Of a stretch of DNA of 64,000 nt, positions 764-54,616 are shown piece after piece; position 1 is the stretch's first letter, and each line of letters starts with the position of its first letter. The stretch is taken from the NCBI GenBank assembly GCA_034716235.1, contig JAYEHH010000037.1:566-64565 (forward strand). The letters run 5' to 3'. The notes beneath the pieces were generated by a model that saw nothing but the letters and a program-made list of their open reading frames with translations, was not told the origin of the DNA and searched no databases. The position numbers were made by a program, and so were the translations under genes. This DNA comes from Patescibacteria group bacterium (GTDB lineage Bacteria; Patescibacteriota; Minisyncoccia; CAIUEV01; JAHKAQ01).

Positions 764-962
764 GTCACCCCCGCGAAAGCGGGGGTCCCGAGCAAATTTA
801 GGAAAAACTAACTTGGCAAAGCCTTGTCTAGACGTACCGGGATTCCCGCTTTCGCGGGAATGACAGAATGGGAATGACAGTGAAAAATAGGAGTAGTAGA
901 CCAATTCTCCATTCTCCATTCTCCATTATCAATTCTCAATTATCAATTATCAATTATCAATC
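764..962. repeat. Composite intergenic repeat (GC-rich hairpin module A plus TTATCAA/TTCTCCA heptamer array), left arm flanking fusA
   Basis: gtcacccccgcgaaagcgggggtcccgagcaaatttagg...gtctagacgtaccgggattcccgctttcgcgggaatgacag, then ccattctccattctccattatcaattctcaattatcaattatcaatc directly abutting the fusA ATG. Related copies occur at more than 10 other loci. Confidence 0.75.
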
Positions 963-3092
963 ATGCCTCGTAAATATCCTCTAGAAAAAACAAGAAATAT
1001 TGGCATTATCGCCCATATTGATGCTGGTAAAACAACCGTAACCGAACGGATTCTTTTCTATACGGGGATTTCTCACAAGATTGGAGAGGTTCATGAAGGT
1101 GAAGCAATTATGGATTGGATGGAGCAGGAGCGAGAAAGAGGCATCACTATTACTTCGGCAGCTACCACCTGTTTTTGGTCTCCGTCTGTCTTTGACGAGG
1201 AAGGTCAAGTAAAAGCCGGCAAAAAAGAATATGCCATTAATATTATTGACACTCCAGGGCATGTAGATTTCACAGTTGAAGTAGAGCGTTCTCTACGAGT
1301 TTTAGATGGAGGAGTAGTTATTTTTGATGGGAAAATGGGAGTAGAGCCCCAGTCGGAAACGGTTTGGAGACAAGCAGATAAATATAAAGTGCCTCGCATT
1401 TGTTTTGTTAATAAAATCAATCAAACGGGAGGTGATTTTTATATGAGTCTAGAATCTATTCAAAGCAGATTAAGTCCTAAAGCGGTAGCCATTACTTTGC
1501 CGATTGGAAGTGAACAGGATTTAAAAGGACTTATTGATTTAGTTGAAATGCAGGCTTATGTTTTTACCGATGATGAACATACAATTCTTCAAAAAACTGA
1601 GATTGATAAAGATATGCAAGAAAAAGCTCAGCAATATCATGATCAATTAGTAGAGAAAGTGGCTGAGACTGATGATAAATTATTAGAAGTTTTTTTGGAA
1701 GATGGTAAAATTTCTCCAGCAGAATTAAAATATGCTATTCGGAAAGCTACTTTAACCAGTAAACTATTTCCAGTTATTGGAGGTGATGGAAGAACCGTTA
1801 TTGTGACAAAACTATTAGATTATGTTTTGGATTATCTTCCTAGCCCATTGGATGTACCTGCCGTTGAAGGAGATGATCCTAAATTAGAAACTAAAATTAC
1901 TCGCAAAACGAACGATGAAGAAAGTTTTTCAGCTCTAGCTTTTAAAATTGCCACCGACCCCTTCGTGGGAACTCTTTGTTTTCTGCGGGTTTACTCGGGA
2001 GTTTTAAAAGTTGGAAGTTATATTCTAAACGCTACTAAGGACGAAAAAGAAAGAGTAGGCAGAATTGTTAGAATGCACTCCAACAAGAGAGAAGAAGTAG
2101 AAGAAGTATATGCCGGAGAAATTGCTGCTATTGTTGGTTTGAAAAATACTACTACCGGAGATACCCTTTGTGATGTAAACAACCCTATAATTTTAGAAAA
2201 AATTACCTTCCCAGAACCAGTAATTTCAGTAGCAGTTGAACCTAAAACTAAAGCTGATCAAGAAAAAATGGGTCTGGCTCTCAAGAAATTAGCTCAAGAA
2301 GACCCAACTTTTCAAATAAGGACTGATGAGGAAACTCTAGAGACTATCATTTCCGGTATGGGAGAGTTACATTTGGAAGTTTTGATAGATAGGATGAAAC
2401 GAGAATTTAAAGTGGGAGCTAATATTGGTAAACCTAGAGTGGCCTACAAAGAAGCCATAGCCACAGAAACAGAAGTTGAAGAAAAATATATTCGTCAAAC
2501 CGGTGGACGCGGTCAGTATGGCCATGTTTTATTAAAACTAGAACCTCAAGAAGCCGGTAAAGGATGTGAATTTGTGAATGCCATAAGGGGAGGACGTATT
2601 CCTCAAGAATTTATTCCGGCAGTAGAAAAAGGGATTAAGGGAGCTATGGAAAGTGGAGTGATTGCTGGTTACCCAGTAGTTGATACAAAAGTTACTTTAT
2701 TTGATGGGTCATATCACGAAGTAGATTCTTCAGAAGCAGCTTTTAAAATTGCTGGCTCTAAAGCTTTTAAGAGAGGCTTTAAGGCCGCTAAACCTTATTT
2801 GCTAGAACCAATAATGAAAGTAGAAGTGGTTACTCCAGAACAATTTATGGGAGATGTGGTTGGAGATTTAAGTTCTAGACGAGGAATCGTTGGTAATATG
2901 GAAGATCGGGGTGAAGACAGTGTGTCCGTTAAAGTCATTGCAGCTAATGTGCCGTTATCATCTATGTTTGGATATGCCACCGCCTTGCGTTCTTTAAGCC
3001 AAGGGAGATCTAACTATTCAATGGAATTTAGCCATTATGAAAAAATCCCGGCTAATATTGCAGAAGAAATTATGGGCAAAGAGGAAGAATAA
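963..3092 (+). CDS. fusA: Translation elongation factor G
   Basis: 709 aa; G1 motif AHIDAGKTT and a full EF-G domain set by similarity to canonical EF-G (e.g. DTPGHVDF). Confidence 0.97.
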
Positions 3093-3272
3093 ATGGATAA
3101 TGGATAATTCACAATGCCACCCAAAGGCTGGTCACCCTCTGGGTGAGATAATGGAGAATTGATAATTTCCCTGTCATTCCCGCGAAAGCGGGAATCCCGG
3201 TACGTCTAGGCAAAACTTTGTCAAAATGATTTTCCTAAATTTGCTCGGGACCCTTGCTAGCACGGGGGTGGT
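3093..3272. repeat. Composite intergenic repeat, right arm flanking fusA, inverted relative to 764-962
   Basis: atggataatggataattcac (heptamers), ccaaaggctggtcaccctctgggtga (module B hairpin), ctgtcattcccgcgaaagcgggaatcccggtacgtctaggcaaaactttgtcaaaatgattttcctaaatttgctcgggaccc (module A). This is the reverse complement of the 764-880 element at roughly 85-90% identity. Confidence 0.75.
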
Positions 3273-3293
3273 ACATACATCAGGGGCGAAAAA

Positions 3294-10608: not shown

Positions 10609-11026
10609 GAAAACACCGTCAAAAAAATTGGTTAATGACTTGGAAACAAAACCGGTAAAAGCTGGTAAGACAAATCCTGTTTCTAAATCCAAGAAAGTTT
10701 TAGCTAAAAAAAAGACTAAAGCTAAATTGGAATACAAGCGGCCTAAATTGAAATTTGAAAGAATCAATACGGATCCATCAGAAAAGAAAGTTGAGATTAA
10801 GAAAAAAATTCAAGGTGTGGTTGTTTCAGATAAAATGGATAAAACGGTGGTAGTTTCTGTGGTTGGGATTAAGGTTCATTCTAAATACCACAAAAGGTAT
10901 AAAAGGAACAAGCGTTATAAAGTCCATGATCCAGAGAATAAATATAAGATTGGGGATGAAGTGGTATTTTCACCATCTAAGCCTTATAGTAAAGGGAAGA
11001 AGTGGGAGGTAGTAGAAAGTTCATAA
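10598..11026 (+). CDS. rpsQ: 30S ribosomal protein S17 (Lys-rich N-terminal extension)
   Basis: GVVVSDKMDKTVVVSVVGIKVHSKYHKRYKRNKRYKVHDPEN core. Confidence 0.9.
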   Translation: MISKKTPSKKLVNDLETKPVKAGKTNPVSKSKKVLAKKKTKAKLEYKRPKLKFERINTDPSEKKVEIKKKIQGVVVSDKMDKTVVVSVVGIKVHSKYHKRYKRNKRYKVHDPENKYKIGDEVVFSPSKPYSKGKKWEVVESS

Positions 11027-11044
11027 AGTTATAAAGTTATAAAG

Positions 11045-15062: not shown

Positions 15063-15150
15063 CCAGTATAAAGTAGAAAGTTCATAAAGTTGAAAGTAGG
15101 AACTTGATAACTTTACAAACTTTACAAACTTTTTACTTTACAAACTTGAC
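15063..15150. repeat. Tandem/palindromic array of AAAGTT/AACTTTACA units
   Basis: agtagaaagttcataaagttgaaagtaggaacttgataactttacaaactttacaaactttttactttacaaacttgacaacc; the same unit family occurs at 11023-11044, 17041-17060, 51047-51125, 52300-52365 and 54103-54125. Confidence 0.6.
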
Positions 15151-15158
15151 AACCTTCC

Positions 15159-15974
15159 ATGCCTTTCTGTTACTTCAATAAAAAAATTATTTCTGAGAAA
15201 AAAGCGAGTGTCTCCTTGAGAGATTTAGGATTGCTTCGTGGTTACGGAGTTTTTGAGGTTTTAACATCTCATCAGCAAGAGTTATTTCTTTTTAAAGAGC
15301 ATTTTAAACGTTTACAGAATTCTGCCAAAGAGCTGAGACTCAAACTACCTGTTTCAGAAAAAAAATTAGAGCTTTTAATAAGGAAATTGCTTGTAAAAAA
15401 TAAATTAGCAGAGGCTAGCATTAGGATTGTTTTAACGGGTGGAGTTTCTCAAGATGGAATTACTTTAGGGAAGAAGCCCACTCTTTTTATTTTGGTTAAT
15501 AAAATTCATAGATTCAAAAAATCAAATTATCTTCAAGGGGTAAAGTTAATGACCGTGGATTATCAGCGAGAAATTCCTCGAGCTAAAATTTCCAACTACA
15601 CCAAGGCCATTAAATTGCAAAAAGAAAAAGATAAAAGAGGAGCAATTGAAATTCTGTATACTCACCAAGGTTTAGTTTTAGAAGCATCAACCAGTAGCTT
15701 CTTTATTTTTAAGGGAAACACCCTGATTACTCCCAAGAATAATATCCTGTTAGGCACTGTCAGGGGTTTTATTTTAAAAATTGCTCGGCAAAAATTTAAA
15801 ATTCAGGAAAGAGATTTGCGGTTGGAAGAATTAAAAAAAGCCGACGAGGCCTTTCTCACTGCGACAATTAAAGAAATAATGCCGGTTGTGAAAGTGGATA
15901 ATTTTAATATTGGTGATGGAAAAGTAGGAGAGAATACCAAATGGTTAATGGAGGAATTTAAAAAGAAACAATAA
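15159..15974 (+). CDS. Class IV PLP-dependent aminotransferase (branched-chain/D-amino-acid aminotransferase or aminodeoxychorismate-lyase family)
   Basis: 271 aa; N-terminal LLRGYGVFE motif and overall fold-type IV pattern. It sits where secY would be expected. Confidence 0.55.
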   Translation: MPFCYFNKKIISEKKASVSLRDLGLLRGYGVFEVLTSHQQELFLFKEHFKRLQNSAKELRLKLPVSEKKLELLIRKLLVKNKLAEASIRIVLTGGVSQDGITLGKKPTLFILVNKIHRFKKSNYLQGVKLMTVDYQREIPRAKISNYTKAIKLQKEKDKRGAIEILYTHQGLVLEASTSSFFIFKGNTLITPKNNILLGTVRGFILKIARQKFKIQERDLRLEELKKADEAFLTATIKEIMPVVKVDNFNIGDGKVGENTKWLMEEFKKKQ

Positions 15975-16094: not shown

Positions 16095-16910
16095 CTATTG
16101 TTTCTGTACTAAAATTATAACTTTTTCTCCTTCTAAAATCCTCTCTTTTTTGCCGGGGAAGTCATGAATACTCTCTAACAGATTTTTGTAAGAGTATTGA
16201 AACCCTTCACCTCTTTTGGTACCAGGGTCATTAGTGATAAAGCGTTGTTTTTTCTCGTCATAACCAGTAATTACTAGGGCGTGATATAGTGGTCCGGGTT
16301 GCTTGAAGTAAGGATTAGCCAAAACTCTGCCAGCTACTGGGACTATGATAATAGATCCCTGAGCAAGATATTTTTTTAAATCTTCTAAGAGATAATTTTG
16401 GACCAATTGATATTTGTCTCCATAAAATTCTTGGGCAAGAGTTATTATTTTTTGAGCATCTAAGTCTGTATGAGCTCCGTAATTTTTCTGCTGATAGGCA
16501 ACCATTTTTAAAATTTCAGCTTCTCCTTCCTGTTTAGATAATTTTTTCTCACCCAGTAAATAGTAATGCGCGATAATAATGGCAGCTTCTTCACAGGCCT
16601 CTCCATGGAGATGGTCCCAATTAGCAAAAGGAGCTTGAGGAATGAAAGGAACTGGATTGTTTATTTTTAAAGGGAGAGGATCTGTTGCCTCTGTTGTTTT
16701 TTTGTTTTTTTGGTTGCTTTCAATACTCGTATCTTTTTCTCCTGTAAGCTTGTCTAGCTGAGCAGTATTTTCTTTAATCTCTTTAAAGATTGGGAAATAG
16801 TCTTTAACTAAATTTGATTTCTGGAAAAAATAATAAAATAAACACCCTAAAACAAGAGTACAAACACTGGCGACTAGAACCCATTTAACACACGGTTTAA
16901 TTTTTCCCAT
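16095..16910 (-). CDS. Membrane-anchored C39-like (papain-fold) peptidase domain protein
   Basis: N-terminal TM helix, then QAPFANWDHLHGEACEEAAIIIAHYY (candidate catalytic Cys) and later HALVITGYDE...FITNDPG (His/Asp), as in Peptidase_C39_2-like domains. Confidence 0.45.
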   Translation of the reverse strand: MGKIKPCVKWVLVASVCTLVLGCLFYYFFQKSNLVKDYFPIFKEIKENTAQLDKLTGEKDTSIESNQKNKKTTEATDPLPLKINNPVPFIPQAPFANWDHLHGEACEEAAIIIAHYYLLGEKKLSKQEGEAEILKMVAYQQKNYGAHTDLDAQKIITLAQEFYGDKYQLVQNYLLEDLKKYLAQGSIIIVPVAGRVLANPYFKQPGPLYHALVITGYDEKKQRFITNDPGTKRGEGFQYSYKNLLESIHDFPGKKERILEGEKVIILVQKQ

Positions 16911-17065
16911 AGGAAATTTTAAAGATTTGTTCTTATTTTATAATTTTAGCTTACTTTTCGTCAAAGGAAAACACAGAAAACTGTCTTTGTTTAATTTATT
17001 TTTTCGATTGTTTTAATAAGTGGAGGAGTAGGGTAGATACAGGTTTGTAAAGTTATAAAGTGACT

Positions 17066-17093
17066 TGTCATTCCCGCGAAAGCGGGAATCCCG
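17066..17093. repeat. Module A hairpin repeat core (GTCATTCCCGCGAAAGCGGGAATCCCGG), left flank of the GIY-YIG gene
   Basis: Exact 28-nt core shared with 3171-3200; cccgc-gaaa-gcggg hairpin. Confidence 0.8.
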
Positions 17094-17120
17094 GGAAGCT
17101 ATAGAATCAAACATTAAATC

Positions 17121-17444
17121 ATGAATAAAAACTATTACGTTTATATTGTAACCAATAATAAGAATAGTACTTTCTATATAGGTATCACTAACAATTTAGA
17201 ACGACGTGTCTATGGACATAAACAAGGGATAGTTAAAGGATTTACTAAACAGTATAATCTCAATAAATTAGTATATTTTGAAGAAACAGGAAATGTTATA
17301 TCTGCAATCTCAAGAGAGAAATGTTTAAAAAAATGGAATAGAAAGTGGAAGGTAGAACTTATTGAGAAAGAGAATCCAAAATGGGAAGATTTAACAAACA
17401 AGTTTCTTCTAAAGCATATCGAGATTCCCGCTTCGCTTGTCTAA
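17121..17444 (+). CDS. Small GIY-YIG nuclease domain protein
   Basis: 107 aa; YYVYIVTNNKNSTFYIGITNNLERRVYGH is a textbook GIY-YIG motif; flanked by inverted copies of the module A repeat. Confidence 0.75.
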   Translation: MNKNYYVYIVTNNKNSTFYIGITNNLERRVYGHKQGIVKGFTKQYNLNKLVYFEETGNVISAISREKCLKKWNRKWKVELIEKENPKWEDLTNKFLLKHIEIPASLV

Positions 17445-17514
17445 TGACAGGCAGGTGCCAAGGATAACAAAAGAATAGATTTCTTAATTGAAAATTATTA
17501 TAATGTTTTTAAAA

Positions 17515-17548
17515 CGTACCGGGATTCCCGCTTTCGCGGGAATGACAG
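17515..17548. repeat. Module A repeat core, inverted copy, right flank of GIY-YIG; contains the ATG of the downstream gene
   Basis: cgtaccgggattcccgctttcgcgggaatgacag is the reverse complement of the 17066-17093 core; its terminal gaATGACAG supplies the start codon at 17542. Confidence 0.8.
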
Positions 17549-19812
17549 CAAATTTAACAACCTTCTTAACCTTCATAACTCTCACCCTCTTTTTCTTTCT
17601 CTTCCCTTTCTCCGTCAGAGCAACGGCGATTGATATTACGGAAAATACAACTTGGAATGAAGATCAAGTAGTGGAGGATAGGGTTATTGTCATGGGAGGA
17701 GCAACTTTAACCATTGAACCGGGAGTCCAAATTAAATTTAAGCCAGGAGGTAATTTAAGAATCTATGGAGATTTAATAGTGGAAGGAGAAAAGAATCAAC
17801 CGGTAATTTTCTTTAGAGAAAAACCTAAGCCAGAGGAAGAAAGGTGGATGTATTATTTAACCTTTGGAGCCGATTCTAATTCTGTCATCAAACATGCAAT
17901 CATTAAAGAGGCTGGTGGTTATTCTGACTCAGGCTCTCGAATGCCGGGAATGAAAATTAGGGGTAATTTAGAAATTTACGACAGTTTAATCACTCAAAAT
18001 TATTGGGCATTAGAAGTGAGAGACGATGGGCATTTAAAAATGAGAAATTCTGATATTTATGATAATCATACAACTTGGGGCGTAGAAGTATTGGGTCATT
18101 CTGCCGCCGCCGATATTGTTGATAATTATTGGGGAGATAATTCAGGCCCCTTTCATTCTTCTTTTAATAAATTGGCTACAGGAGAAAGAATCAATGGAGG
18201 CAATCTTGAATTTACACCCTGGGAAACAAGAGGTAAGAAGCCAATCATTCTAATCCCTGGATTTGGAGAATCTTTAAATTTCGGAAAGTTTTTTCAGAAT
18301 CAAGTAGGGAGATGGTGGCTTTTCCCGCCTACCAAATCAACCTCAGCCTTAAAAACTTTGCTAGAGGATGCTGGCTATGAAGATGAAGTAGATTTATTTG
18401 TTGGTTTTTATGACTGGCGGAAATCAATTCATCAAAATGCGACGGATTATTTAAAGCCAATTATAAATTTGGCTAAAGAAAAATCTGGTTTTAAAGAGGT
18501 GGACATTGTTGCTTTTAGTTTCGGTGGGCTTGTTTCCAGAAGCTATGTCCAAGGGAATTCTTTTGGGTTTGATGTAAATAATTTAATAACTTTAGGGACT
18601 CCCCATCAAGGAATTTCAAAAATTTACACTTTTGCAGCAGGCGGTCAGTTGCCAGCTGGCTGGAACCCCTTACTTTACATTTATCTCTGGTATGAACAAA
18701 TAGAGGAAGGTCAATCTGCCTTGGGTTATATCCAAAATTATTTACCATCCGTTTATGAGATAATGCCCACCTATGATTTCTTAAAAATGTCAGGGAGCTT
18801 GATTAATCATCAAGAAATGTCTATCACCAATAATATTTTGCAAGAGTTAAATAATGGAATTGGAGATTTACAAAATAGGGTAGATGCATTCTTTGTCGGA
18901 GGGACCGATCAACTAACCTTAGACAATATTCCAGTAAGACCACATCTACCAAACGATGGAGCATTTTGGCTGGACGGAGCTCCTGACCCAGCAAGACCAG
19001 TACCCAACAGTACTGAAGGAGATGCGACGGTCCTTACCAAAAGTGCTATTTGGGGAGTAGAAGATATTAAAAGCACTTTAATCCAGAGCCAGCATGAAGA
19101 TTTACCGTTAGAAGCAAAAACAGAAATTGAGAATATTTTAGACATTGATTTAGGAGAAACAAACTTTGATTTTAATTATTCGGAGGATTATCTTATTTTT
19201 TGCTTAGCTTCTCCTTTGGAAGTGGAAATCGTGGATCAGGCAGGGCATAGGCTTTCTCGGGAAATAAATGAAATTGAAAATGCTTATTTTTATGAAGAAG
19301 ATCCGTTGGGAAAAAAAATAATTTTAATTTATAATCCGGATACTGAATATTCAATGGAGGTTTCCGGGTTGGCGAACAGTGATTATAGAATTTTAGCAAT
19401 GTCAGCTGATGCTAATAGTGAAATAGTTTCTGCTGAAATTTCTGCAGAGATTGCTCTAGGAGAAAATGTTGAATATTGGGCAAGAAGAGTGGTGACTGAT
19501 ACCGAGGGAAATGAGCAGGGGGATGCGAATGAGTTAAAAATTGAAATTTATGAGAAAATCGTAGCTGACTATAAAGTGCTTGTTGGTCGAGTAAAAGATT
19601 TTTATAAAACTGGATTTTTGAAAAGTTGGGAGGTCAGACAGGAACTTTTAGAAAGAATACTGGCTAGCTATAATTTTTCAAAGAGAGATCAATTAGAAGA
19701 AGAGGGATTAATGATTGAAGATATAAAAGCAAAGGTTATTGAACTAGAAGTAAATGAGCTACTTGATTCCTCGAGTTCCCAATTGTTACTAGATGCCCTA
19801 GATGAGTTCTAA
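17542..19812 (+). CDS. Secreted protein: N-terminal signal peptide, right-handed parallel beta-helix repeats, LCAT/PGAP1-like alpha/beta-hydrolase (phospholipase/lipase) domain
   Basis: Signal peptide MTANLTTFLTFITLTLFFFLFPFSVRA; beta-helix-like repeats (NSDIYDNHTTWGVEV...); hallmark FYDWRKS and AFSFGG (A-x-S-x-G-G nucleophile elbow). Start reassigned from the TTG at 17488 to the ATG at 17542. Confidence 0.6.
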   Translation: MTANLTTFLTFITLTLFFFLFPFSVRATAIDITENTTWNEDQVVEDRVIVMGGATLTIEPGVQIKFKPGGNLRIYGDLIVEGEKNQPVIFFREKPKPEEERWMYYLTFGADSNSVIKHAIIKEAGGYSDSGSRMPGMKIRGNLEIYDSLITQNYWALEVRDDGHLKMRNSDIYDNHTTWGVEVLGHSAAADIVDNYWGDNSGPFHSSFNKLATGERINGGNLEFTPWETRGKKPIILIPGFGESLNFGKFFQNQVGRWWLFPPTKSTSALKTLLEDAGYEDEVDLFVGFYDWRKSIHQNATDYLKPIINLAKEKSGFKEVDIVAFSFGGLVSRSYVQGNSFGFDVNNLITLGTPHQGISKIYTFAAGGQLPAGWNPLLYIYLWYEQIEEGQSALGYIQNYLPSVYEIMPTYDFLKMSGSLINHQEMSITNNILQELNNGIGDLQNRVDAFFVGGTDQLTLDNIPVRPHLPNDGAFWLDGAPDPARPVPNSTEGDATVLTKSAIWGVEDIKSTLIQSQHEDLPLEAKTEIENILDIDLGETNFDFNYSEDYLIFCLASPLEVEIVDQAGHRLSREINEIENAYFYEEDPLGKKIILIYNPDTEYSMEVSGLANSDYRILAMSADANSEIVSAEISAEIALGENVEYWARRVVTDTEGNEQGDANELKIEIYEKIVADYKVLVGRVKDFYKTGFLKSWEVRQELLERILASYNFSKRDQLEEEGLMIEDIKAKVIELEVNELLDSSSSQLLLDALDEF

Positions 19813-19945: not shown

Positions 19946-20161
19946 ATGCAAAAACCATATTACGAAAAACCAAATTTTAAATTATATAAAACAGATAGTT
20001 TAGAGTTTCTAGCACAATTACCAGAAAATTCTATTGATATGATTTTTGCCGATCCTCCCTATTTTCTTTCAAGTGGAAGTTTCACCTGCCACAATGGAAA
20101 AATGGTAAATGTAAAAAAGGGAGATTTTATAATTTTTCGACAAAAGAAACCATGCAATTAA
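19946..20161 (+). pseudogene. N-terminal 71-aa fragment of a DpnA/beta-class N6-adenine (GATC) DNA methyltransferase; truncated, displaced by the downstream gene
   Basis: MQKPYYEKPNFKLYKTDSLEFLAQLPENSIDMIFADPPYFLSSG...VNVKKGDF matches the N-terminus and DPPY motif IV of DpnA-like MTases. The reading frame ends after 71 aa and overlaps the start of the next ORF. Confidence 0.65.
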
Positions 20162-20919
20162 TTTTGAATACAGATTTAGCTACTCAATACAAAAGTCAAT
20201 CTCAGAAAGTTAGAGTTTTGACTGAAAATTGGGTAAAAAATGAGATTTTTTGTCCGAATTGTGGGAATATTATTTCTAAATATCCAAACAATAAGCCAGT
20301 TGGAGATTTCTATTGTTCTGATTGTTTAGAAGATTATGAATTAAAAAGTAAAAAAGATTCAATTGGTAATAAAATTGTTGATGGAGCTTATAAAACAATG
20401 ATTGAAAGATTACAAAGCTCTACAAATCCAAATTTTTTCTTTTTAAACTATAATTTGCATACTTACGAAGTTGTAAATTTTGTTGTTATTCCAAAACATT
20501 TTTTTATTCCAGAAATAATTGAAAAAAGGAGACCCTTATCAGAGAATGCTCGTCGTGCTGGCTGGGTTGGTTGTAGTATTTTATTACAAAGTATTCCTGA
20601 AAGTGGAAAGATTTTCTACATTAAAAATCAACGAAAACAAAAAAAAGAAAAAGTTTTAAAAAATTGGCAAAAGACTTTATTTTTAAGACAACCTCAAGAA
20701 ATAGAATTAAAAGGCTGGATTTTAGATATTATGAAGTGCATTGATAAATTAGGGAAAAAGAAATTTTCGCTCGAAGAAATGTATTCATTTGAGAAAATCT
20801 TATCAGAAAAATATCCTGAGAATAATCATATTAAGGATAAAATAAGACAACAACTCCAGTTTTTAAGAGATGAAGGTTATTTAGATTTTTTATCTCGTGG
20901 TATTTATCGTTTAAAATAA
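20152..20919 (+). CDS. DpnI-like methylation-dependent (G-m6A-TC) type IIM restriction endonuclease: PD-(D/E)XK catalytic domain plus C-terminal winged helix
   Basis: 255 aa. From my memory of the S. pneumoniae DpnI sequence, the blocks match closely: YKSQSQKVRVLTENWV, FCPNCGN, DFYCSDC, ELKSKK, DGAYKTM, NPNFFFLNY, RRAGWVGC, GLFLR, NNHIKDKIRQQLQFLRD. Length is also the same. Confidence 0.75.
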   Translation: MQLILNTDLATQYKSQSQKVRVLTENWVKNEIFCPNCGNIISKYPNNKPVGDFYCSDCLEDYELKSKKDSIGNKIVDGAYKTMIERLQSSTNPNFFFLNYNLHTYEVVNFVVIPKHFFIPEIIEKRRPLSENARRAGWVGCSILLQSIPESGKIFYIKNQRKQKKEKVLKNWQKTLFLRQPQEIELKGWILDIMKCIDKLGKKKFSLEEMYSFEKILSEKYPENNHIKDKIRQQLQFLRDEGYLDFLSRGIYRLK

Positions 20920-34332: not shown

Positions 34333-34477
34333 AGTTTGTAAAGTTTAGGTAATGGATAATGGACGATGGAGAATTGACAATTGATAATGAATAATGCCAG
34401 CCTCTGGCTGGCGATTCCTTACCAAATTAGTTTCTCCTAAATTTGCTCGGGACCCCCGCCTACGCGGGGGTGACAAG
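34333..34477. repeat. Composite repeat (GGATAAT heptamers, module B-like AATGCCAGCCTCTGGCTGGC, module A half AAATTTGCTCGGGACCCCCGC...GCGGGGGTGAC)
   Basis: Same module order as 3093-3272. Confidence 0.65.
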
Positions 34478-35352: not shown

Positions 35353-35745
35353 CAATGGACAATTGACAATGGAGAATGCCAGCCAGAGGGTGACAATCTT
35401 TTTCCCACTGTCATTCCCGTCCCGTCATCCCAGCATTCGCGGGACAGGTCCGACGGGATAAATTCCAGCCCGCCTAAGCTCGCTAACTAATGTACCCATT
35501 ACAGTTTTGTGACACGGCGAGGCAAGCGGGAATCCCGAGCAAATTTAGGAAAGGCTAACACAACTTGTCATTCCCGCCTGCGCGGGAATGACAAATAAAA
35601 TTGTGAAGCGGGGGTGACAGTGGAGAAGCATTCCATAATTGTAAATTGCCAGCCAAAGGCTCGCATGGACACGGCGAGACTGGCTGGTTTGTCTCGCCGA
35701 AGGCTGGTCACCCTCTGGGTGAAAAATTATTTTCCCTTGTCCCCA
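35349..35745. repeat. Large composite repeat block (heptamers, module B, module C CCCGTC..CGCGGGACAGG..GACGGG, module D, module A, module B) upstream of tRNA-Leu; inverted partner at 44827-44990
   Basis: 35399-35545 is ~92% identical to the reverse complement of 44827-44986, including the unique segment gctaactaatgtacccattacagttttgtgacacggcgaggcaagcggg. Confidence 0.75.
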
Positions 35746-44456: not shown

Positions 44457-44600
44457 TTGATGGACAATGGATAATGGATGAATATCTTTTTCTAATTTTC
44501 AATTTTATTTGTCATTCCTGTAAAAGTTAGGTAATTCGTTGACAGATATGTCATTCCCGCGTAGGCGGGAATCCAGAAACTAGAATAAAATTTCTGAGAC
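44457..44600. repeat. Composite repeat (GGATAAT/GGACAAT heptamers plus module A variants GTCATTCCTGTAAAAG... and GTCATTCCCGCGTAGGCGGGAATCCAGAAACTAGAATAAAAT)
   Basis: Near-identical to 54125-54180 (gtcattcccgcgaaggcgggaatccagaaactagaataaaatta). Confidence 0.65.
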
Positions 44601-44739
44601 TAAATACAAATTAACAATTACTAGAAAGCTGACCTGTATCATTTTCTAAGTTTCATATAGCTTTACTAGAAGAAATAAGTATTATTTAAAAGTTATTTTA
44701 CTGTTACAGTAAAATAAGTGCAGTATGTTTTAGAAATCT

Positions 44740-44990
44740 GGATTCCTGCCTTCCTGCCTCACCTACCTCACGGTAGGCAGGCGGTAGGCAGGCACGGGGA
44801 ATGACAAATAAGAAAGTATTGTCTAAAACGTCTCGGGACCCCCGCTTGCCTCGCCGTGCCACAAAATTGTAATGGGTACATTAGTTAGCGAGTTTAGGCG
44901 GGCTGGAGTTTATCCCGTCGGACCTGTCCCGCGAATGCTGGGGTGACGGGGCGGGAATGACAGGGGAAAAAGCTAGTTGGCTTTGATCTT
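44740..44990. repeat. Large composite repeat block, inverted partner of 35399-35545; includes CACCTACCT-type microsatellite
   Basis: cctcacctacctcacggtaggcaggcggtaggcagg ... then the reverse complement of modules A/D/C as at 35399-35545. Its end overlaps the 3' end of rpmE. Confidence 0.75.
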
Positions 44991-50462: not shown

Positions 50463-51050
50463 ATGCAACGAATTCCTATCGAAATTTCAGCACGGCACTT
50501 ACACCTATCGCGAGCTGATACAGATATTATTTTTGGGAAAGGCTACCAATTACATGTTTTTAAAAAATTATCGCAACCAGGATCTTTTTCTACTCAAGAA
50601 ACTGTTAAAATAATTTACAAGGGAAAATCTGGGGAAAAAAGTTTAGAGAAAGTTAGAATCATTGCTCCTCTAAGAGATCATTCTCAGCTGGAGCTTGCTG
50701 GAACAGATGCTCGACGGTTAGGAGCTAAGCCTCCTATTCGTCTTAGTGGGAATATTGAGGGTACCCCTGGGTTTGAAATTGTAGGGCCAGCAGGAGCAGT
50801 GGCTAAAGAAGAAGGGATGATAATTGCCAAAAGACATTTACATGTTTCTCCTAAAGAAGCGGAGGAGTTATCCCTTAAAAACGGAAATGAAATTAAGGTT
50901 AAAGCTGGTGGAGATGGAGAACGAGAGCTTATTTTTTGCAAAGTGGTTGTGAGGGTGGCAGAAAATTTCAAATTAGCCATGCATATTGATACCGATGAAA
51001 GTAACGCCGTTGGTATGACAAGTTGTGGATATGGGGAAATAACTTTATAA
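50463..51050 (+). CDS. pduL: PduL-type phosphate acyltransferase (phosphotransacetylase/propanoyltransferase)
   Basis: Duplicated PduL motifs ISARHLHLSRAD...IFG and IAKRHLHVSPKEAEEL; the acetate kinase gene follows immediately. Confidence 0.75.
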   Translation: MQRIPIEISARHLHLSRADTDIIFGKGYQLHVFKKLSQPGSFSTQETVKIIYKGKSGEKSLEKVRIIAPLRDHSQLELAGTDARRLGAKPPIRLSGNIEGTPGFEIVGPAGAVAKEEGMIIAKRHLHVSPKEAEELSLKNGNEIKVKAGGDGERELIFCKVVVRVAENFKLAMHIDTDESNAVGMTSCGYGEITL

Positions 51051-51125
51051 CCTTATAACTTTACAACTTTACAAACTTTACAAACTTTATAAACTTTACA
51101 AATTTTATAACTTTATGAACTTTCT
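51047..51125. repeat. Tandem nonamer array CTTTACAAA (about 8 units, degenerate)
   Basis: ccttataactttacaactttacaaactttacaaactttataaactttacaaattttataactttatgaactttc between pduL and ackA. Confidence 0.7.
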
Positions 51126-52181
51126 ATGTCTATCTTAGCTATAAATTCAGGAAGCCAAACTTTAAAGTACAAGCTGTACCAAGCGGAAAGTTTTAAATTA
51201 ATAAAAGAAGGAAAGATTGAAAATATCGGGTTTGGTAAAATAAAAAATCATTTTGAAGCTATTAATCAGGTCAGGGAAGAAATTCAAGAATATGAGTCAG
51301 AACTTAAAATTATTGGACACCGTTACGTCAATGGAGGACTGGAATTCATTGATCCTCAAGTCATAGATCAAGCTAAGGCGAAAACTCTGGAACAATATAA
51401 TAGCTTAGCCCCTCTCCATAATCCAGCCAACTTAGCAGGAATCAGGGCTACCTTAAAAATGATTCCGCAAGCTACAAATGTAGCGGTTTTTGATACGCAT
51501 TTTTACAAAGATCTTCCAGAAGTAGCTTGGCGCTATGCTTTAAATAAAAAAATAGCTGACGAGAATAATTATCGTCGCTTAGGTTTTCATGGTATTTCTC
51601 ACGCCTATGCTGTTTCTCAAGTTGCTACCGTTCTGAAAAAGAAGGTTAATGAAATGAAAATAATTTCTTTGCATTTAGGGGGAGGAGCCAGTATAACGGC
51701 TACCAATAATGGTAAGGTGGTGGATACCAGTATGGGCTTTACTCCGGCAGAGGGCTTAATGATGATGACCCGTTCTGGTGATATTGATCCAGGGATTCTT
51801 ATTGATTTAGTCAGGAAGGGGATGGGAGGAGATGAGTTGGACGAACTCCTGAATTACCAAAGCGGTATTTACGGTATTTGTAATAAGCAAAGCATGTTAG
51901 CAGTGTTGGAAGATTTAAAAGAGAAAAAAACTAAAGATGTTCAATTAGCTTTTGAAATGTATGTTTATCGGATTAAGAAATATATCGGAGCTTACTATGC
52001 GATTTTAGGAGGTTGTGATGCTTTAGTTTTCACGGGGACAATAGGGGCTGGCAATCCTGAGACCCGAGAAGCCGTAATGGAAGGCCTAGATTTTGTTGCC
52101 GAGGTTCCAGTATTAGTTATTCCTACCGATGAAGAAATTATGATTGCTAAAGAGGCATACGATGTAGTGAAAAGTTCATAA
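51126..52181 (+). CDS. ackA: Acetate (propionate) kinase, compact 351-aa form
   Basis: ILAINSGSQTLKYKLY N-terminus; FHGISHAY; C-terminal VIPTDEEIMIAKEA. Confidence 0.85.
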   Translation: MSILAINSGSQTLKYKLYQAESFKLIKEGKIENIGFGKIKNHFEAINQVREEIQEYESELKIIGHRYVNGGLEFIDPQVIDQAKAKTLEQYNSLAPLHNPANLAGIRATLKMIPQATNVAVFDTHFYKDLPEVAWRYALNKKIADENNYRRLGFHGISHAYAVSQVATVLKKKVNEMKIISLHLGGGASITATNNGKVVDTSMGFTPAEGLMMMTRSGDIDPGILIDLVRKGMGGDELDELLNYQSGIYGICNKQSMLAVLEDLKEKKTKDVQLAFEMYVYRIKKYIGAYYAILGGCDALVFTGTIGAGNPETREAVMEGLDFVAEVPVLVIPTDEEIMIAKEAYDVVKSS

Positions 52182-52185
52182 AGGA

Positions 52186-52365
52186 ATTTTTTACACAGAG
52201 GGTGATCCGCCTCTGGATAATGGATAATGGATAATGGACAATTGATGATTCCACCTAGAGGGTGACCAGTCTCTGGCTGGTTGCTTAATGACAAGTTCGT
52301 AAAGATGGGACAATTCATAATTTCTTAATCACTTTATGAACTTTATGAACTTTATGAACTTTCTA
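52186..52365. repeat. Composite repeat (module B AGAGGGTGATCCGCCTCTGG, GGATAAT heptamers, module B AGAGGGTGACCAGTCTCTGGCTGG, tandem CTTTATGAA x3)
   Basis: cacagagggtgatccgcctctggataatggataatggataatggacaattgatgattccacctagagggtgaccagtctctggctggttgc...ctttatgaactttatgaactttatgaactttc. Confidence 0.65.
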
Positions 52366-52384: not shown

Positions 52385-54103
52385 ATGAAAAAATGGATTT
52401 TACGGTCTCAACCGGGAGACAAATACAGAAAAAAGTTTTCTAATTATTCTAAATTTGTTCAAACCATTTTTTACCAGATAGGTATTAAGACTGACAAGGA
52501 GGCGGAAGATTTTTTTGGTTTAGACTATGAAAATGGATTGCATGATCCCCAGCTACTTTCGGGAATGGAGAAAGGAGCTGAAAGGATTTTAAAGGCTATT
52601 AAAAATAACGAGCAGATTGCTATTTACGGTGACTATGACGCTGACGGAGTAACAGCGACTGCCGTTTTGAGTCAATTCTTTAAAGAATTGAAAATTGAGC
52701 CAGTTGTTTATATCCCTGAACGAGTTAATGAAGGTTATGGTTTGAATGGAAAAGCGATTGATTATCTTAAGGACAAAAAAGTTAAATTAGTTATTACCGT
52801 AGATACTGGCATTAGAAATGTTGAAGAAGCTCAACTTTTTAAAGAAGAAGGAATTGATTTAATTATTACCGACCATCATTCATTGCCAGAAAAGCTTCCC
52901 GAGGCAGTTGCCGTTATTAATCCTCATCAAGATAAAGGGAAATATCCTTTTGAAGATTTAGCGGGAGTGGGAGTGGCTTTCAAATTGGTCCAATTTTTGA
53001 TTGGTAAAATAGGCGAGAATAAATTTTCGGCTGGTTTTGAAAAATGGCTTTTAGATTTAGTAGCCTTGGGGACAATAGCCGACATGGTCCCTCTCAAAGG
53101 AGAGAATAGAATTTTAGCTAAATATGGTCTTATTGTTTTAAGCAAAACTAAGAGATTTGGATTAAGGTCATTAATGAGCAATACTAGAATTTCTCTTAAC
53201 GACGAACAGCCAATTACTTCAGAAACGGTAGCTTTTCAAATAGCTCCCAGAATAAATGCGGCCGGTAGAATGGACCACGCTAATAATGCCTTGGTCCTCC
53301 TAAATGCAGAGAATAACACCGAAGCTAAGAAATTAGCCGACCAATTAGAAGATCAAAATAAAGCGCGTAGGAACATTACCAGTAAAATTCTTAGAGAAAC
53401 AGAAAAAATGGACTTTGGTGATAAAAAGATTATTATTGTCGGTAAAGATAGCTGGCCACTTGGCGTGATAGGATTGGCGGCGGGCAAACTTTGTGATAAA
53501 TTTAATCGTCCCGTTTTAGTTTATGGCAAGGACGGAAATCAAGTGCGTGGTTCCGCCAGAAGTATAGTTGGTTTCAATATTATAAAAGCATTGGATGAAT
53601 TGGATGATTTATTGGTGGCTCATGGAGGGCATAAACAGGCAGCCGGGTTTACTGTTCCCAGAGAGAAGTTGTCAGAATTTAAAGAAAGGTTAGAAAAGAT
53701 TGCAGAACAGGAAATACAAACAAAAGACTTGATGGCTAAACAAAAGATTAATTATAGGATTAACTTTAATGAGATAGGGAAGGATTTAGAGGAGGAGTTA
53801 AAAGCTTTTGAGCCTTATGGAGTTGGCAATCAAGAACCAGTTTTTTTAATTAAAGATGCTCAAGTTTGCCAAGCAAAATTTGTTGGTAAAACACAAAAAC
53901 ATTTAAAACTATTGGTTTGCGAGGGAAAAAAGAAAGCAGGTTTAATAAAGTATATTGGTTGTATTGGGTTTAATTTTGAAAATTACACCGGCAAAATAAA
54001 GCCGGGAGATTTGATAGACATTGTGTTTAATTTAAGTGTTAATAATTTTAATGGCAAAGCAGCATTAGAATTTAAAATGATAGACCTGAGAGTGAAAAGT
54101 TAA
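52385..54103 (+). CDS. recJ: Single-stranded-DNA-specific exonuclease RecJ
   Basis: DHH family motifs: DYDADGVTATAVL, VDTGIRN, ITDHHS; DHHA1 C-terminal region GGHKQAAGF. Confidence 0.9.
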   Translation: MKKWILRSQPGDKYRKKFSNYSKFVQTIFYQIGIKTDKEAEDFFGLDYENGLHDPQLLSGMEKGAERILKAIKNNEQIAIYGDYDADGVTATAVLSQFFKELKIEPVVYIPERVNEGYGLNGKAIDYLKDKKVKLVITVDTGIRNVEEAQLFKEEGIDLIITDHHSLPEKLPEAVAVINPHQDKGKYPFEDLAGVGVAFKLVQFLIGKIGENKFSAGFEKWLLDLVALGTIADMVPLKGENRILAKYGLIVLSKTKRFGLRSLMSNTRISLNDEQPITSETVAFQIAPRINAAGRMDHANNALVLLNAENNTEAKKLADQLEDQNKARRNITSKILRETEKMDFGDKKIIIVGKDSWPLGVIGLAAGKLCDKFNRPVLVYGKDGNQVRGSARSIVGFNIIKALDELDDLLVAHGGHKQAAGFTVPREKLSEFKERLEKIAEQEIQTKDLMAKQKINYRINFNEIGKDLEEELKAFEPYGVGNQEPVFLIKDAQVCQAKFVGKTQKHLKLLVCEGKKKAGLIKYIGCIGFNFENYTGKIKPGDLIDIVFNLSVNNFNGKAALEFKMIDLRVKS

Positions 54104-54612
54104 AAGTTTATAAAGTTAGAAAGTTAAACTATTAAAGTCATTCCCGCGAAGGCGGGAATCCAGAAACTAGAATAAAATTATCATTGATAAATAATGGATG
54201 GTGATTATCAAAAACACTAGCCTACATAAATTTACTAGAAGAAATAAATATTGTTAAGAATTGGCTTATTGTTATAATGAAATAAAATTGGTGCATTCTA
54301 AATTTCTAGATTCCCGTCCGGCATCCCAGCATCCGCGGGACAGGTTCGCCGGATTGCACTTCCCTACCTCACCTACCTCACCTACCTCACGGCAGACAAG
54401 TGGCAGACAAGTGGCAGACAGGCGCGGGGAATGACAGGGGAAAAAGGCTGACTGGCTTGTCTCGCCGAAGGCTCGCCTAAACTCGGTGAGGCTAGAGGAG
54501 ATCCCGAGCAAATTTAGAAAAAAACTAATTTGGCAAGGCTCTGCCTAGACGTACCGGGATTCCCGCTTTCGCGGGAATGACAGGAATGCAACTTTACAAA
54601 CTTTTAACTATT
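54103..54612. repeat. Composite repeat block (AAAGTT units, module A, module C, CACCTACCT x3 and GGCAGACAAGT x3 microsatellites, module A)
   Basis: gtcattcccgcgaaggcgggaatccagaaactagaataaaatta; cccgtccggcatcccagcatccgcgggacaggttcgccgg; cctcacctacctcacctacctcacggcagacaagtggcagacaagtggcagaca; ...gtctagacgtaccgggattcccgctttcgcgggaatgacagg (near-identical to 828-866). Confidence 0.7.
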
Positions 54613-54616
54613 TATT

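Follow-up and report, generated by a model that had tools for sequence, protein, structure and literature searches.

A small GIY-YIG nuclease gene between inverted recognition hairpins in a Patescibacteria genome: a probable Ssn system locus beside a remodelled lipase gene

What relation does a small GIY-YIG nuclease gene have to the inverted copies of a 28-nt hairpin repeat that frame it, and what has the right-hand copy done to the lipase gene into which it runs? The locus lies in a 64,000-nt stretch of contig JAYEHH010000037.1 from a Patescibacteria metagenome-assembled genome (MAG), which we call the window (G+C content, 35.9%). The original prediction had offered two explanations, namely that the nuclease gene is cargo of a minimal mobile unit with the repeats as its ends or that insertion of the repeat remodelled a gene start. 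The repeat, the open reading frame (ORF) and the in-frame ATG that it described are all present, and the repeat occurs far beyond chance. Sequence comparison assigns the gene and its hairpins, with a probability of roughly 0.88, to the Ssn system, in which inverted copies of a hairpin frame the gene for the ssDNA nuclease that recognizes it. The locus is of an already published kind (Ssn, described in 2025) and is not a new system. Patescibacteria are ultra-small bacteria thought to depend on the uptake of foreign DNA. The assignment extends Ssn and its hairpins to this phylum, where a nuclease cutting incoming single strands could matter; it also provides four versions of one orthologous site (without a cassette, with one, with a different Ssn, and apparently inverted), which bear on whether such cassettes move, and a hairpin copy in, or forming, the first codons of a secreted-enzyme gene, with an impact on coding sequence.

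Two bodies of published work meet at this locus. The Neisseria hairpin NTS (CGTCATTCCCGCGMAVGCGGGAATCYRG) and its degenerate form, SRM, are tied across bacteria to ssnA, which encodes a 94-aa single-domain GIY-YIG protein (CDD cd10448, GIY-YIG_unchar_3) (Chenal et al. 2025, Nat Commun, PMC11893778). With homology defined there as blastp E < 1e-10 and at least 75% query cover, the SRM pattern gave at least one flanking copy for 71% of Ssn homologues and copies on both sides for 42%. Binding by SsnA and by three homologues requires the hairpin to be single-stranded DNA (ssDNA) and is confined to the head strand, (C/T)GTC-stem-loop-stem-C, which they cut a few nucleotides 5' of its GTC; SsnA does not act on RNA, homologues vary in specificity, and in Neisseria meningitidis SsnA lowers transformation by NTS-bearing DNA, i.e., it restricts incoming transforming ssDNA (PMC11893778). 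The same authors likened NTS-ssnA-NTS to an insertion sequence (IS), the mobility of which was not demonstrated there. Independently, Di Nocera et al. (2013, BMC Genomics, PMC3733652) defined CGTC-tagged repetitive extragenic palindromes (REPs) by a CGTC/TGTC head, an 8- to 9-bp stem starting with AT, a 4- to 5-nt loop and a CCA tail; family CGTC-1 includes Neisseria dRS3 and Rickettsia RPE-6, intragenic copies were recorded for both GTAG and CGTC REPs, and no dedicated transposase was tied to the CGTC class. The 2025 study does not cite the 2013 classification, and the SRM/NTS hairpin and the CGTC-tagged REP would, judging from their shared features, be the same thing. Literature searches that paired GIY-YIG with REP, REPIN, RAYT, terminal inverted repeats or Patescibacteria returned nothing relevant, and searches for the hairpin sequence itself returned only incidental Neisseria matches.

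The features of the locus on which the argument turns are as follows.

17066-17094, + strand: left SRM/NTS hairpin of the cassette, with TGTC head, ATTCCCGC-GAAA-GCGGGAAT stem-loop and CCCGG tail; an exact 28-mer copy and an SRM match
17121-17444, + strand: putative ssn gene for a 107-aa single-domain GIY-YIG protein of the Ssn (cd10448-like) family, from Pfam and the SsnA alignment
17422-17450, - strand: what is left of the cassette's right SRM, now decayed to GAGATTCCCGCTTCGCTTGTCTAATGACAG, which runs over the ssn stop codon
17514-17548, - strand: second, perfect SRM, a 35-nt unit that reads ACGTACCGGGATTCCCGCTTTCGCGGGAATGACAG on the + strand, reaches into the lipase 5' end and includes ATG 17542
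17503-19812, + strand: gene for a secreted beta-helix/LCAT-like lipase (Pfam Palm_thioest, LCAT, PGAP1), with candidate starts at ATG 17503 and ATG 17542

The 28-mer GTCATTCCCGCGAAAGCGGGAATCCCGG is found exactly at 17067-17094 (+) and 17519-17546 (-), so that the predicted flanking pair is there, 1 to 2 nt away from the 17066-17093 and 17521-17548 first assigned to it. Further exact copies lie at 837-864 (-), 3173-3200 (+) and 54554-54581 (-), with a 3-mismatch copy at 54137 (+), against an expectation of 0 in dinucleotide shuffles of the window. The hairpin core, ATTCCCGC-N4-GCGGGAAT, occurs nine times, and the published SRM search pattern also yields nine matches (0.04 expected from shuffles), including one on each flank of the GIY-YIG gene within 500 bp, at 17066-17093 (+) and 17520-17547 (-). 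Perfect copies fold as ssDNA into an 8-bp stem with a GAAA loop at about -9 kcal/mol each. Read as TGTC / ATTCCCGC / GAAA / GCGGGAAT / CCC, the window hairpin has the head, stem, loop and tail by which CGTC REPs are defined, and copies at 54136 and 44549 carry the CCA tail itself. Compared with the Neisseria NTS consensus, it has 2 changes in 28 positions and keeps both the GTC head, which governs cleavage, and the C after the palindrome, which governs binding.

The left hairpin ends 27 nt upstream of the ssn ATG, a distance usual among homologues. On the right, the copy at 17422-17450 lies about 30 nt past the conserved domain, the place of the right hairpin in most homologues, and retains the head, one stem arm and the tail; the other arm has been replaced, and the sequence forms no hairpin on folding (z = -0.2). 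The last ~10 residues of the 107-aa protein are read-through into this decayed copy. The head of the left hairpin is on the + strand and those of the right hairpins are on the - strand, and because the heads point outward, the predicted cuts would fall just outside the cassette and on opposite strands.

The protein supports the same assignment. The ORF at 17121-17444 matches Pfam GIY-YIG over residues 4 to 77 (E = 1.1e-16), its sole other Pfam match being T5orf172, below cutoff and over the same stretch; at under 150 aa and with no extra domain, it has the build of the Ssn family. It is 48% identical to the Neisseria gonorrhoeae SsnA orthologue over 85 residues with no gaps (pairwise BLASTP E = 5e-32), and tblastn against the gonococcal chromosome gave E = 5e-22 at 84% cover. 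This comparison used the 94-aa gonococcal orthologue and not CAX49033.1; the orthologue carries Y6, Y17 and E64 and sits among NTS copies, and comparison with it was possible because gonococcal chromosomes are filed in PLSDB (records NZ_CP119140.1 and NZ_CP119142.1 are 2.17-Mb N. gonorrhoeae chromosomes listed as plasmids). Window residues Y8, Y19 and E66 align without gaps to Y6, Y17 and E64 of SsnA (N. meningitidis numbering), which are experimentally required. All three are invariant in a 27-sequence alignment, all 24 invariant residues of which are held by the window protein. We had considered E32G as a damaging change at a near-invariant position and dropped it, as Neisseria SsnA has Q there. 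By its 48% identity and near-identical site, the window protein is predicted to bind and cut the hairpin as the Ssn family does, and the proposal that a small GIY-YIG protein acts as the cutter at such hairpins agrees well with the published biochemistry of that family.

Generic resources say less. Pfam and NCBIfam place the protein only generically in GIY-YIG, no NCBIfam profile matched it above cutoff, a PDB sequence search gave only spurious WD40 repeat matches and weak UPF0213 matches, and an exact-sequence look-up of the 107 aa found no record. Homologues 53 to 84% identical to it occur in many phyla, and many have N- or C-terminal tails that are translated hairpins (IPAFAGMT, VIPAKAGIQ, SPPSRG, GFPLSRE).

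What carries the assignment beyond a single window is the architecture of the homologous loci. We compared about 160 of them, 80 metagenomic and 80 from named genomes, the latter spanning Patescibacteria, Bacteroidota, Alpha-, Beta- and Gammaproteobacteria, Planctomycetota, Ignavibacteriota, Omnitrophota, Clostridia, Actinomycetota, Rickettsia and Legionellales. A hairpin typically lies 5 to 75 nt upstream of the ssn ATG and an inverted copy 10 to 90 nt past the conserved domain. Outside the hairpins, sequence similarity between loci stops at the (T/C)GTC head. As a consensus, the hairpin reads tGTC-ATTCCCGC-gaaa-GCGGGAAT-CCAg. Within a pair, the loop of one copy is the reverse complement of the other's (GAAA/TTTC, GTAA/TTAC, GCAG/CTGC, and likewise where the loops are long), and lineages have their own compensatory stems, such as ATTCCTGC in Flavobacteriia, ATCCTCGGG in Rhizobiales and ATTGCGGG in Burkholderiales. 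A perfect-stem hairpin is present on each side in 53 of the 75 loci with at least 150 nt of sequence on both sides, and both hairpins are present at 50 of 84 genes in the named genomes. Across the 160 loci, 166 of 225 SRM matches fall within 250 nt of an ssn gene, at a density of 1.85 per kb compared with 0.041 per kb elsewhere (45-fold), and most loci have few hairpins away from the gene. Heads point outward in 73 of 93 matches on the 5' side and in 60 of 73 on the 3' side. The predicted unity of GIY-YIG gene and repeats is therefore borne out by a conserved layout and by this enrichment near homologues, and the proposed search for homologues with and without the repeat, once run, shows that the association recurs in many phyla. 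We also observed hairpin-ssn-hairpin units in tandem, with three copies in Flavivirga sp. (L142, 9803-11406; 503-bp period, 95 to 97% identity) and two in Rhizobium bangladeshense (L134, 2159-3352; 89.5% identity).

Several points weigh against the assignment. In the window, the right hairpin proper to the cassette is broken, and this copy of the cassette may be decaying; the hairpin tail reads CCCGG where Neisseria has CYRG, and specificity may differ accordingly; a sigma-70-like promoter scan of the + strand upstream of ssn found none, although such a scan may not suit this phylum; and Ssn activity of the window protein and of its homologues in Patescibacteria is a prediction from sequence.

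How the cassette probably came to lie beside the lipase gene can be read from a comparison with orthologous sites, for which two further features are needed.

16095-16910, - strand: Peptidase_C39_2 gene (Pfam), the left synteny anchor
17020-17541, no strand: block present in the window and additional to the empty-site loci L007 and L008-L011, from locus comparison

The search for empty sites that the original prediction had called for located them in L007 and L008-L011. These loci have the gene order Aminotran_4, Peptidase_C39_2 (minus strand) and lipase, with lipases 60 to 61% identical to that of the window, a peptidase-lipase spacer of 136 to 138 bp that contains no hairpin, and no GIY-YIG gene or SRM across 8.6 to 14 kb. 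A landmark common to the window and the empty-site loci, ttaatttattttttcg..ttttaataa, ends at 17019, after which L007 and L008 continue with 44 to 50 nt of unrelated spacer and then the lipase ATG. Loci L172-L175, on the other hand, hold an orthologous cassette with an Ssn 84% identical to that of the window. Their layout, as in L172, runs from the left hairpin through ssn to an intact right hairpin that abuts the stop codon, with a spacer and a second hairpin at the lipase 5' end beyond it. Because the inner right hairpin of the cassette is intact in L172, the perfect copy in the window corresponds to the separate lipase-side hairpin, which is kept at the same place in L006, L172 and L173, and the two perfect copies of the window are probably not, as had been supposed, the two ends of one unit.

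Two strains from the same sample (ERZ27316679), represented by L006 and L172, have flanks that are 90 to 98% identical and lipase genes 93.5% identical at the nucleotide level. At the same site, L006 carries an Ssn only 48% identical in protein sequence to that of the co-occurring strain, framed by ATTGC-type hairpins; it has the same lipase-side hairpin. L172 retains a remnant of an L006-type right hairpin arm. In L175 (ERZ27316532), ssn, right hairpin, spacer and hairpin are followed by the reverse complement of the cassette left flank, a junction expected from inversion between inverted hairpins that could instead be an assembly chimera. The peptidase-lipase site is thus best described as dynamic, and ordinary recombination could produce each of these events.

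We propose that the cassette entered the peptidase-lipase spacer in an ancestor shared by the window, L172 and L006 lineages, once these had separated from the L007/L008 lineages; that the inner right hairpin decayed later, in the window lineage; and that a separate hairpin, at the very start of the lipase gene or among its first codons, has rewritten the 5' end of that gene. Further along, at 19946-20919, between the lipase and a GH1 gene, the window has a DpnI-family (methyl-directed) restriction gene and a 71-aa fragment with a faint, sub-cutoff methyltransferase-like Pfam match; L006, L007 and L008 have only ~130 to 250 bp at this position, an indel distinct from that of the cassette.

The 5' end of the lipase gene itself offers two starts. 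ATG 17542-17544 lies inside GGGAATGACAG and in frame with the ORF 17488-19812; the upstream in-frame ATG 17503 is the NCBI-annotated start (P0121, 769 aa; orthologues P0122-P0128). Both are kept in all four repeat-bearing loci, and orthologues without the repeat begin MLVRR, MLAKR, MNIFK, MKSR or MFNR. We moderately favor ATG 17503 on sequence grounds. Translation from it gives MFLKR (MFYLKR in relatives), close to the ancestral MLAKR/MLVRR n-region and the source of the only positive charges of the signal peptide, and a 3-nt indel among the repeat-bearing relatives keeps its frame. With this start, the hairpin unit encodes RTGIPAFAGMT and would be an in-frame intragenic insertion. That the repeat instead supplies the functional start at ATG 17542 is a minority possibility that deserves some weight: from this codon there are 29 residues before the conserved IDITE motif, compared with 23 to 27 in repeat-free orthologues, MAFFT places the ancestral ATG of L007/L008 on it, and it would survive a cassette inversion like that of L175. 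Against it, the A and U of the AUG are paired in an 8-bp G+C-rich RNA stem (centroid, -14 kcal/mol), and the product would begin MTANLTT, with no positive charge, whereas all orthologues carry a lysine or arginine among residues 1 to 5. That the right copy creates the lipase start codon is accordingly unproven, with a conserved ATG upstream and its own ATG half inside an RNA stem.

The broader proposal that repeat insertion remodelled a gene start has fared better. Repeat-free orthologues start MLVRR or MLAKR after the hairpin-free spacer described above, and the repeat has clearly rewritten the lipase 5' end whichever ATG is used. In L172 and L173, the lipase-side stem has undergone a compensatory change (GC to GT and GC to AC) that alters two encoded residues yet keeps the hairpin, pointing to constraint on the DNA hairpin and not on the peptide; selection appears to keep the repeat, rather than the peptide, at the lipase 5' end.

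Copies of the hairpin also occur elsewhere in the window, singly, in doublets and around non-coding units.

763-866, no strand: SRM doublet upstream of fusA, a gene-less counterpart of the cassette, inverted with heads outward and a 47-nt spacer; SRM matches at 763 (+) and 838 (-)
3172-3280, no strand: second SRM doublet, downstream of fusA, its right hairpin degenerate
34448-34475, - strand: further SRM copy with a CCCCCGC stem variant, from the SRM pattern
44549-44576, + strand: further SRM copy with loop GTAG, from the SRM pattern
54136-54583, no strand: 448-bp non-coding unit with outward-pointing SRMs at its ends and, inside it, an SRM that has a loop insert (54310-54436)

The 35-mer of 17514-17548 recurs at 832-866, 3171-3205 and 54549-54583. 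The doublet at 763-866 folds as one long, REPIN-like ssDNA hairpin (-30.3 kcal/mol, z = -5.5). Together, the two doublets bracket fusA (963-3092) with heads outward and spacers of ~45 nt, resembling the "NTS-gene-NTS" configuration of Neisseria. In our proposed history, related hairpins would have spread into other intergenic mosaics of the genome, these doublets on both sides of fusA included. Non-coding units of about the size of the ssn cassette lie at 44549-44971 (423 bp) and 54136-54583 (448 bp), to which the segment 35400-35596 may be added; we considered the first two as decayed ssn genes, and tblastn found no Ssn remnant in them. The first 43 nt of the hairpin-bounded non-coding units match the hairpin and leader of another Ssn cassette type (L176-L181), and a 149-nt inverted repeat, 91% complementary, links 35400-35548 and 44823-44971.

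Other small repeats share these intergenic regions. Some hairpin loops contain an inserted small palindrome (ctgcctaccg...cggtaggcagg) of 19 to 39 nt, longer in the window (window 54310-54436; L173 720-790; L175 395-445), apparently a second kind of tiny repeat, nested in the first, with hairpin loops as its target. Short arrays of a 9-mer (AACTTTACA, complement AAAGTTATA) mark gene boundaries at 11006-11044, 15067-15159, 17032-17061, 51041-51126, 52322-52365, 54095-54124 and 54589-54615, one of them directly before the ssn left hairpin. A palindromic module, ccacccaaaggctggtcaccctctgggtgag, is found at 3117-3148, 35697-35722 and 52195-52280; common to L001-L005 and L176-L181 and thus shared with other Patescibacteria contigs, it often adjoins Ssn hairpins in mosaic intergenic regions.

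Could the hairpins be there for reasons that have little to do with the nuclease? They might be terminators, attenuators or mRNA stabilizers for neighboring genes, their placement around the GIY-YIG gene being incidental; REP-type hairpins do stabilize mRNA 3' ends in other bacteria (reviewed in PMC3733652), and all window copies are intergenic or at gene ends. We consider this very improbable given that the stems are not followed by a T-run and a terminator scan found none, that the unpaired head and tail bases are conserved and strand-specific, that the 45-fold enrichment is specific to ssn genes, that an Rfam scan at gathering thresholds matched only 16S rRNA and one tRNA and no hairpin, and that SsnA is inactive on RNA. 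A still smaller probability, close to negligible, attaches to the idea that an abundant repeat happens to flank an unrelated small gene. The repeat does occur at seven further window sites without a nearby GIY-YIG gene, but the arrangement recurs with co-varying hairpins in the independent loci of many phyla, most of which have few copies elsewhere. Under the Ssn assignment, the biological role of the cassette here could be control of ssDNA uptake or recombination, selfish persistence, or both.

A more ambitious explanation, compatible with the Ssn assignment but claiming more, is that hairpin-ssn-hairpin is an autonomous IS-like element in which Ssn acts as transposase or nickase and moves gene-less doublets in trans, by analogy with RAYT and REPIN. 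The terminal inverted layout conserved across phyla with unrelated flanks up to the TGTC head, the empty site in L007 and L008, the different cassettes at one site in two same-sample strains, the whole units in tandem in Flavivirga and Rhizobium and the REPIN-like folding of heads-outward doublets would all suit such an element, Chenal et al. (PMC11893778) having remarked on the IS-like layout and Di Nocera et al. (PMC3733652) having left the CGTC REPs without an associated transposase. We nonetheless regard it as unlikely, if worth keeping in view. GIY-YIG enzymes hydrolyze DNA, and strand-transfer or rejoining activity is not known for them; inspection of the flanks revealed no evident target-site duplication; the 64-kb window has a single GIY-YIG gene by tblastn, the one ssn copy; homologous recombination through conserved flanking genes after DNA uptake can explain the exchange of cassettes between L006 and L172; unequal crossing-over can yield tandem arrays; and a search of phage genomes found no Ssn homologue. 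The proposal of a minimal mobile unit thus holds as regards a conserved unit, and its autonomous mobility is plausible but unproven. Stronger still, and in our estimation improbable, is the idea that the cassette is an autonomous mobile element with a new kind of mechanism, in which a GIY-YIG ssDNA nuclease does the work of a transposase. Ssn would then be the missing enzyme of the CGTC REPs, and the cassette would seed and move the gene-less doublets and flip or swap beside the lipase gene as a switch. Were this so, hairpin recombination would change the lipase leader while the hairpin-borne ATG stays.

Several known systems can be set beside the locus. UPF0213/YhbQ proteins (PDB 1zg2 and 1ywl) are likewise stand-alone GIY-YIG proteins of ~100 aa and provide the only solved structures with detectable sequence similarity, which is weak (E = 0.003 to 0.01); we know of no report of a hairpin association for this family. 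GIY-YIG homing endonucleases of the I-TevI type share the GIY-YIG core, a selfish-looking small gene and patchy presence, but differ in that the window protein lacks a separate DNA-binding domain and an intron or intein context and belongs to a family with ssDNA, not double-stranded DNA, as substrate; we rejected membership, the protein being single-domain and scoring 22 bits against a cutoff of 56 for TIGR01453, the NCBIfam group I intron endonuclease profile. A classical IS would have a transposase gene between terminal inverted repeats, a target-site duplication and multiple identical copies per genome. The cassette has inverted hairpin ends, and near-identical tandem copies exist in other genomes; inspection of its flanks gave no evident target-site duplication, the window has one copy, and there is no recognized transposase chemistry.

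RAYT/REP/REPIN systems and IS200/IS605 share with the locus a single-copy nuclease gene between inverted hairpins that are recognized as ssDNA and that also form dispersed doublets able to fold into long hairpins. We rejected RAYT/REPIN membership: the gene encodes a GIY-YIG hydrolase and not an HUH Y1 tyrosine transposase, and the tag is CGTC/TGTC (TGTC in the window) instead of GTAG; a covalent intermediate and transposition are not known for Ssn. The CGTC-1 REPs (PMC3733652) match the window hairpin in their unpaired (C/T)GTC head, 8-bp stem beginning with AT, 4-nt loop and short unpaired 3' tail, and in occurring mostly as inverted pairs with occasional intragenic copies; the window differs from the class as described in 2013 in its associated ssn gene, in a phylum then unlisted and in a CCC tail in place of the usual CCA. 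The Ssn family of Chenal et al. differs from the locus in its hosts, the phylum of this Patescibacteria MAG not being named in the main text of that paper, and in the particular form of the window's hairpins, with TGTC head, CCCGG tail, one decayed cassette end and a copy overlapping a coding 5' end. What the two have in common is a ~100-aa single-domain GIY-YIG protein, 48% identical to SsnA and with the same catalytic residues, and a near-identical NTS/SRM hairpin in inverted copies on both sides of its gene, with extra intergenic clusters around other genes.

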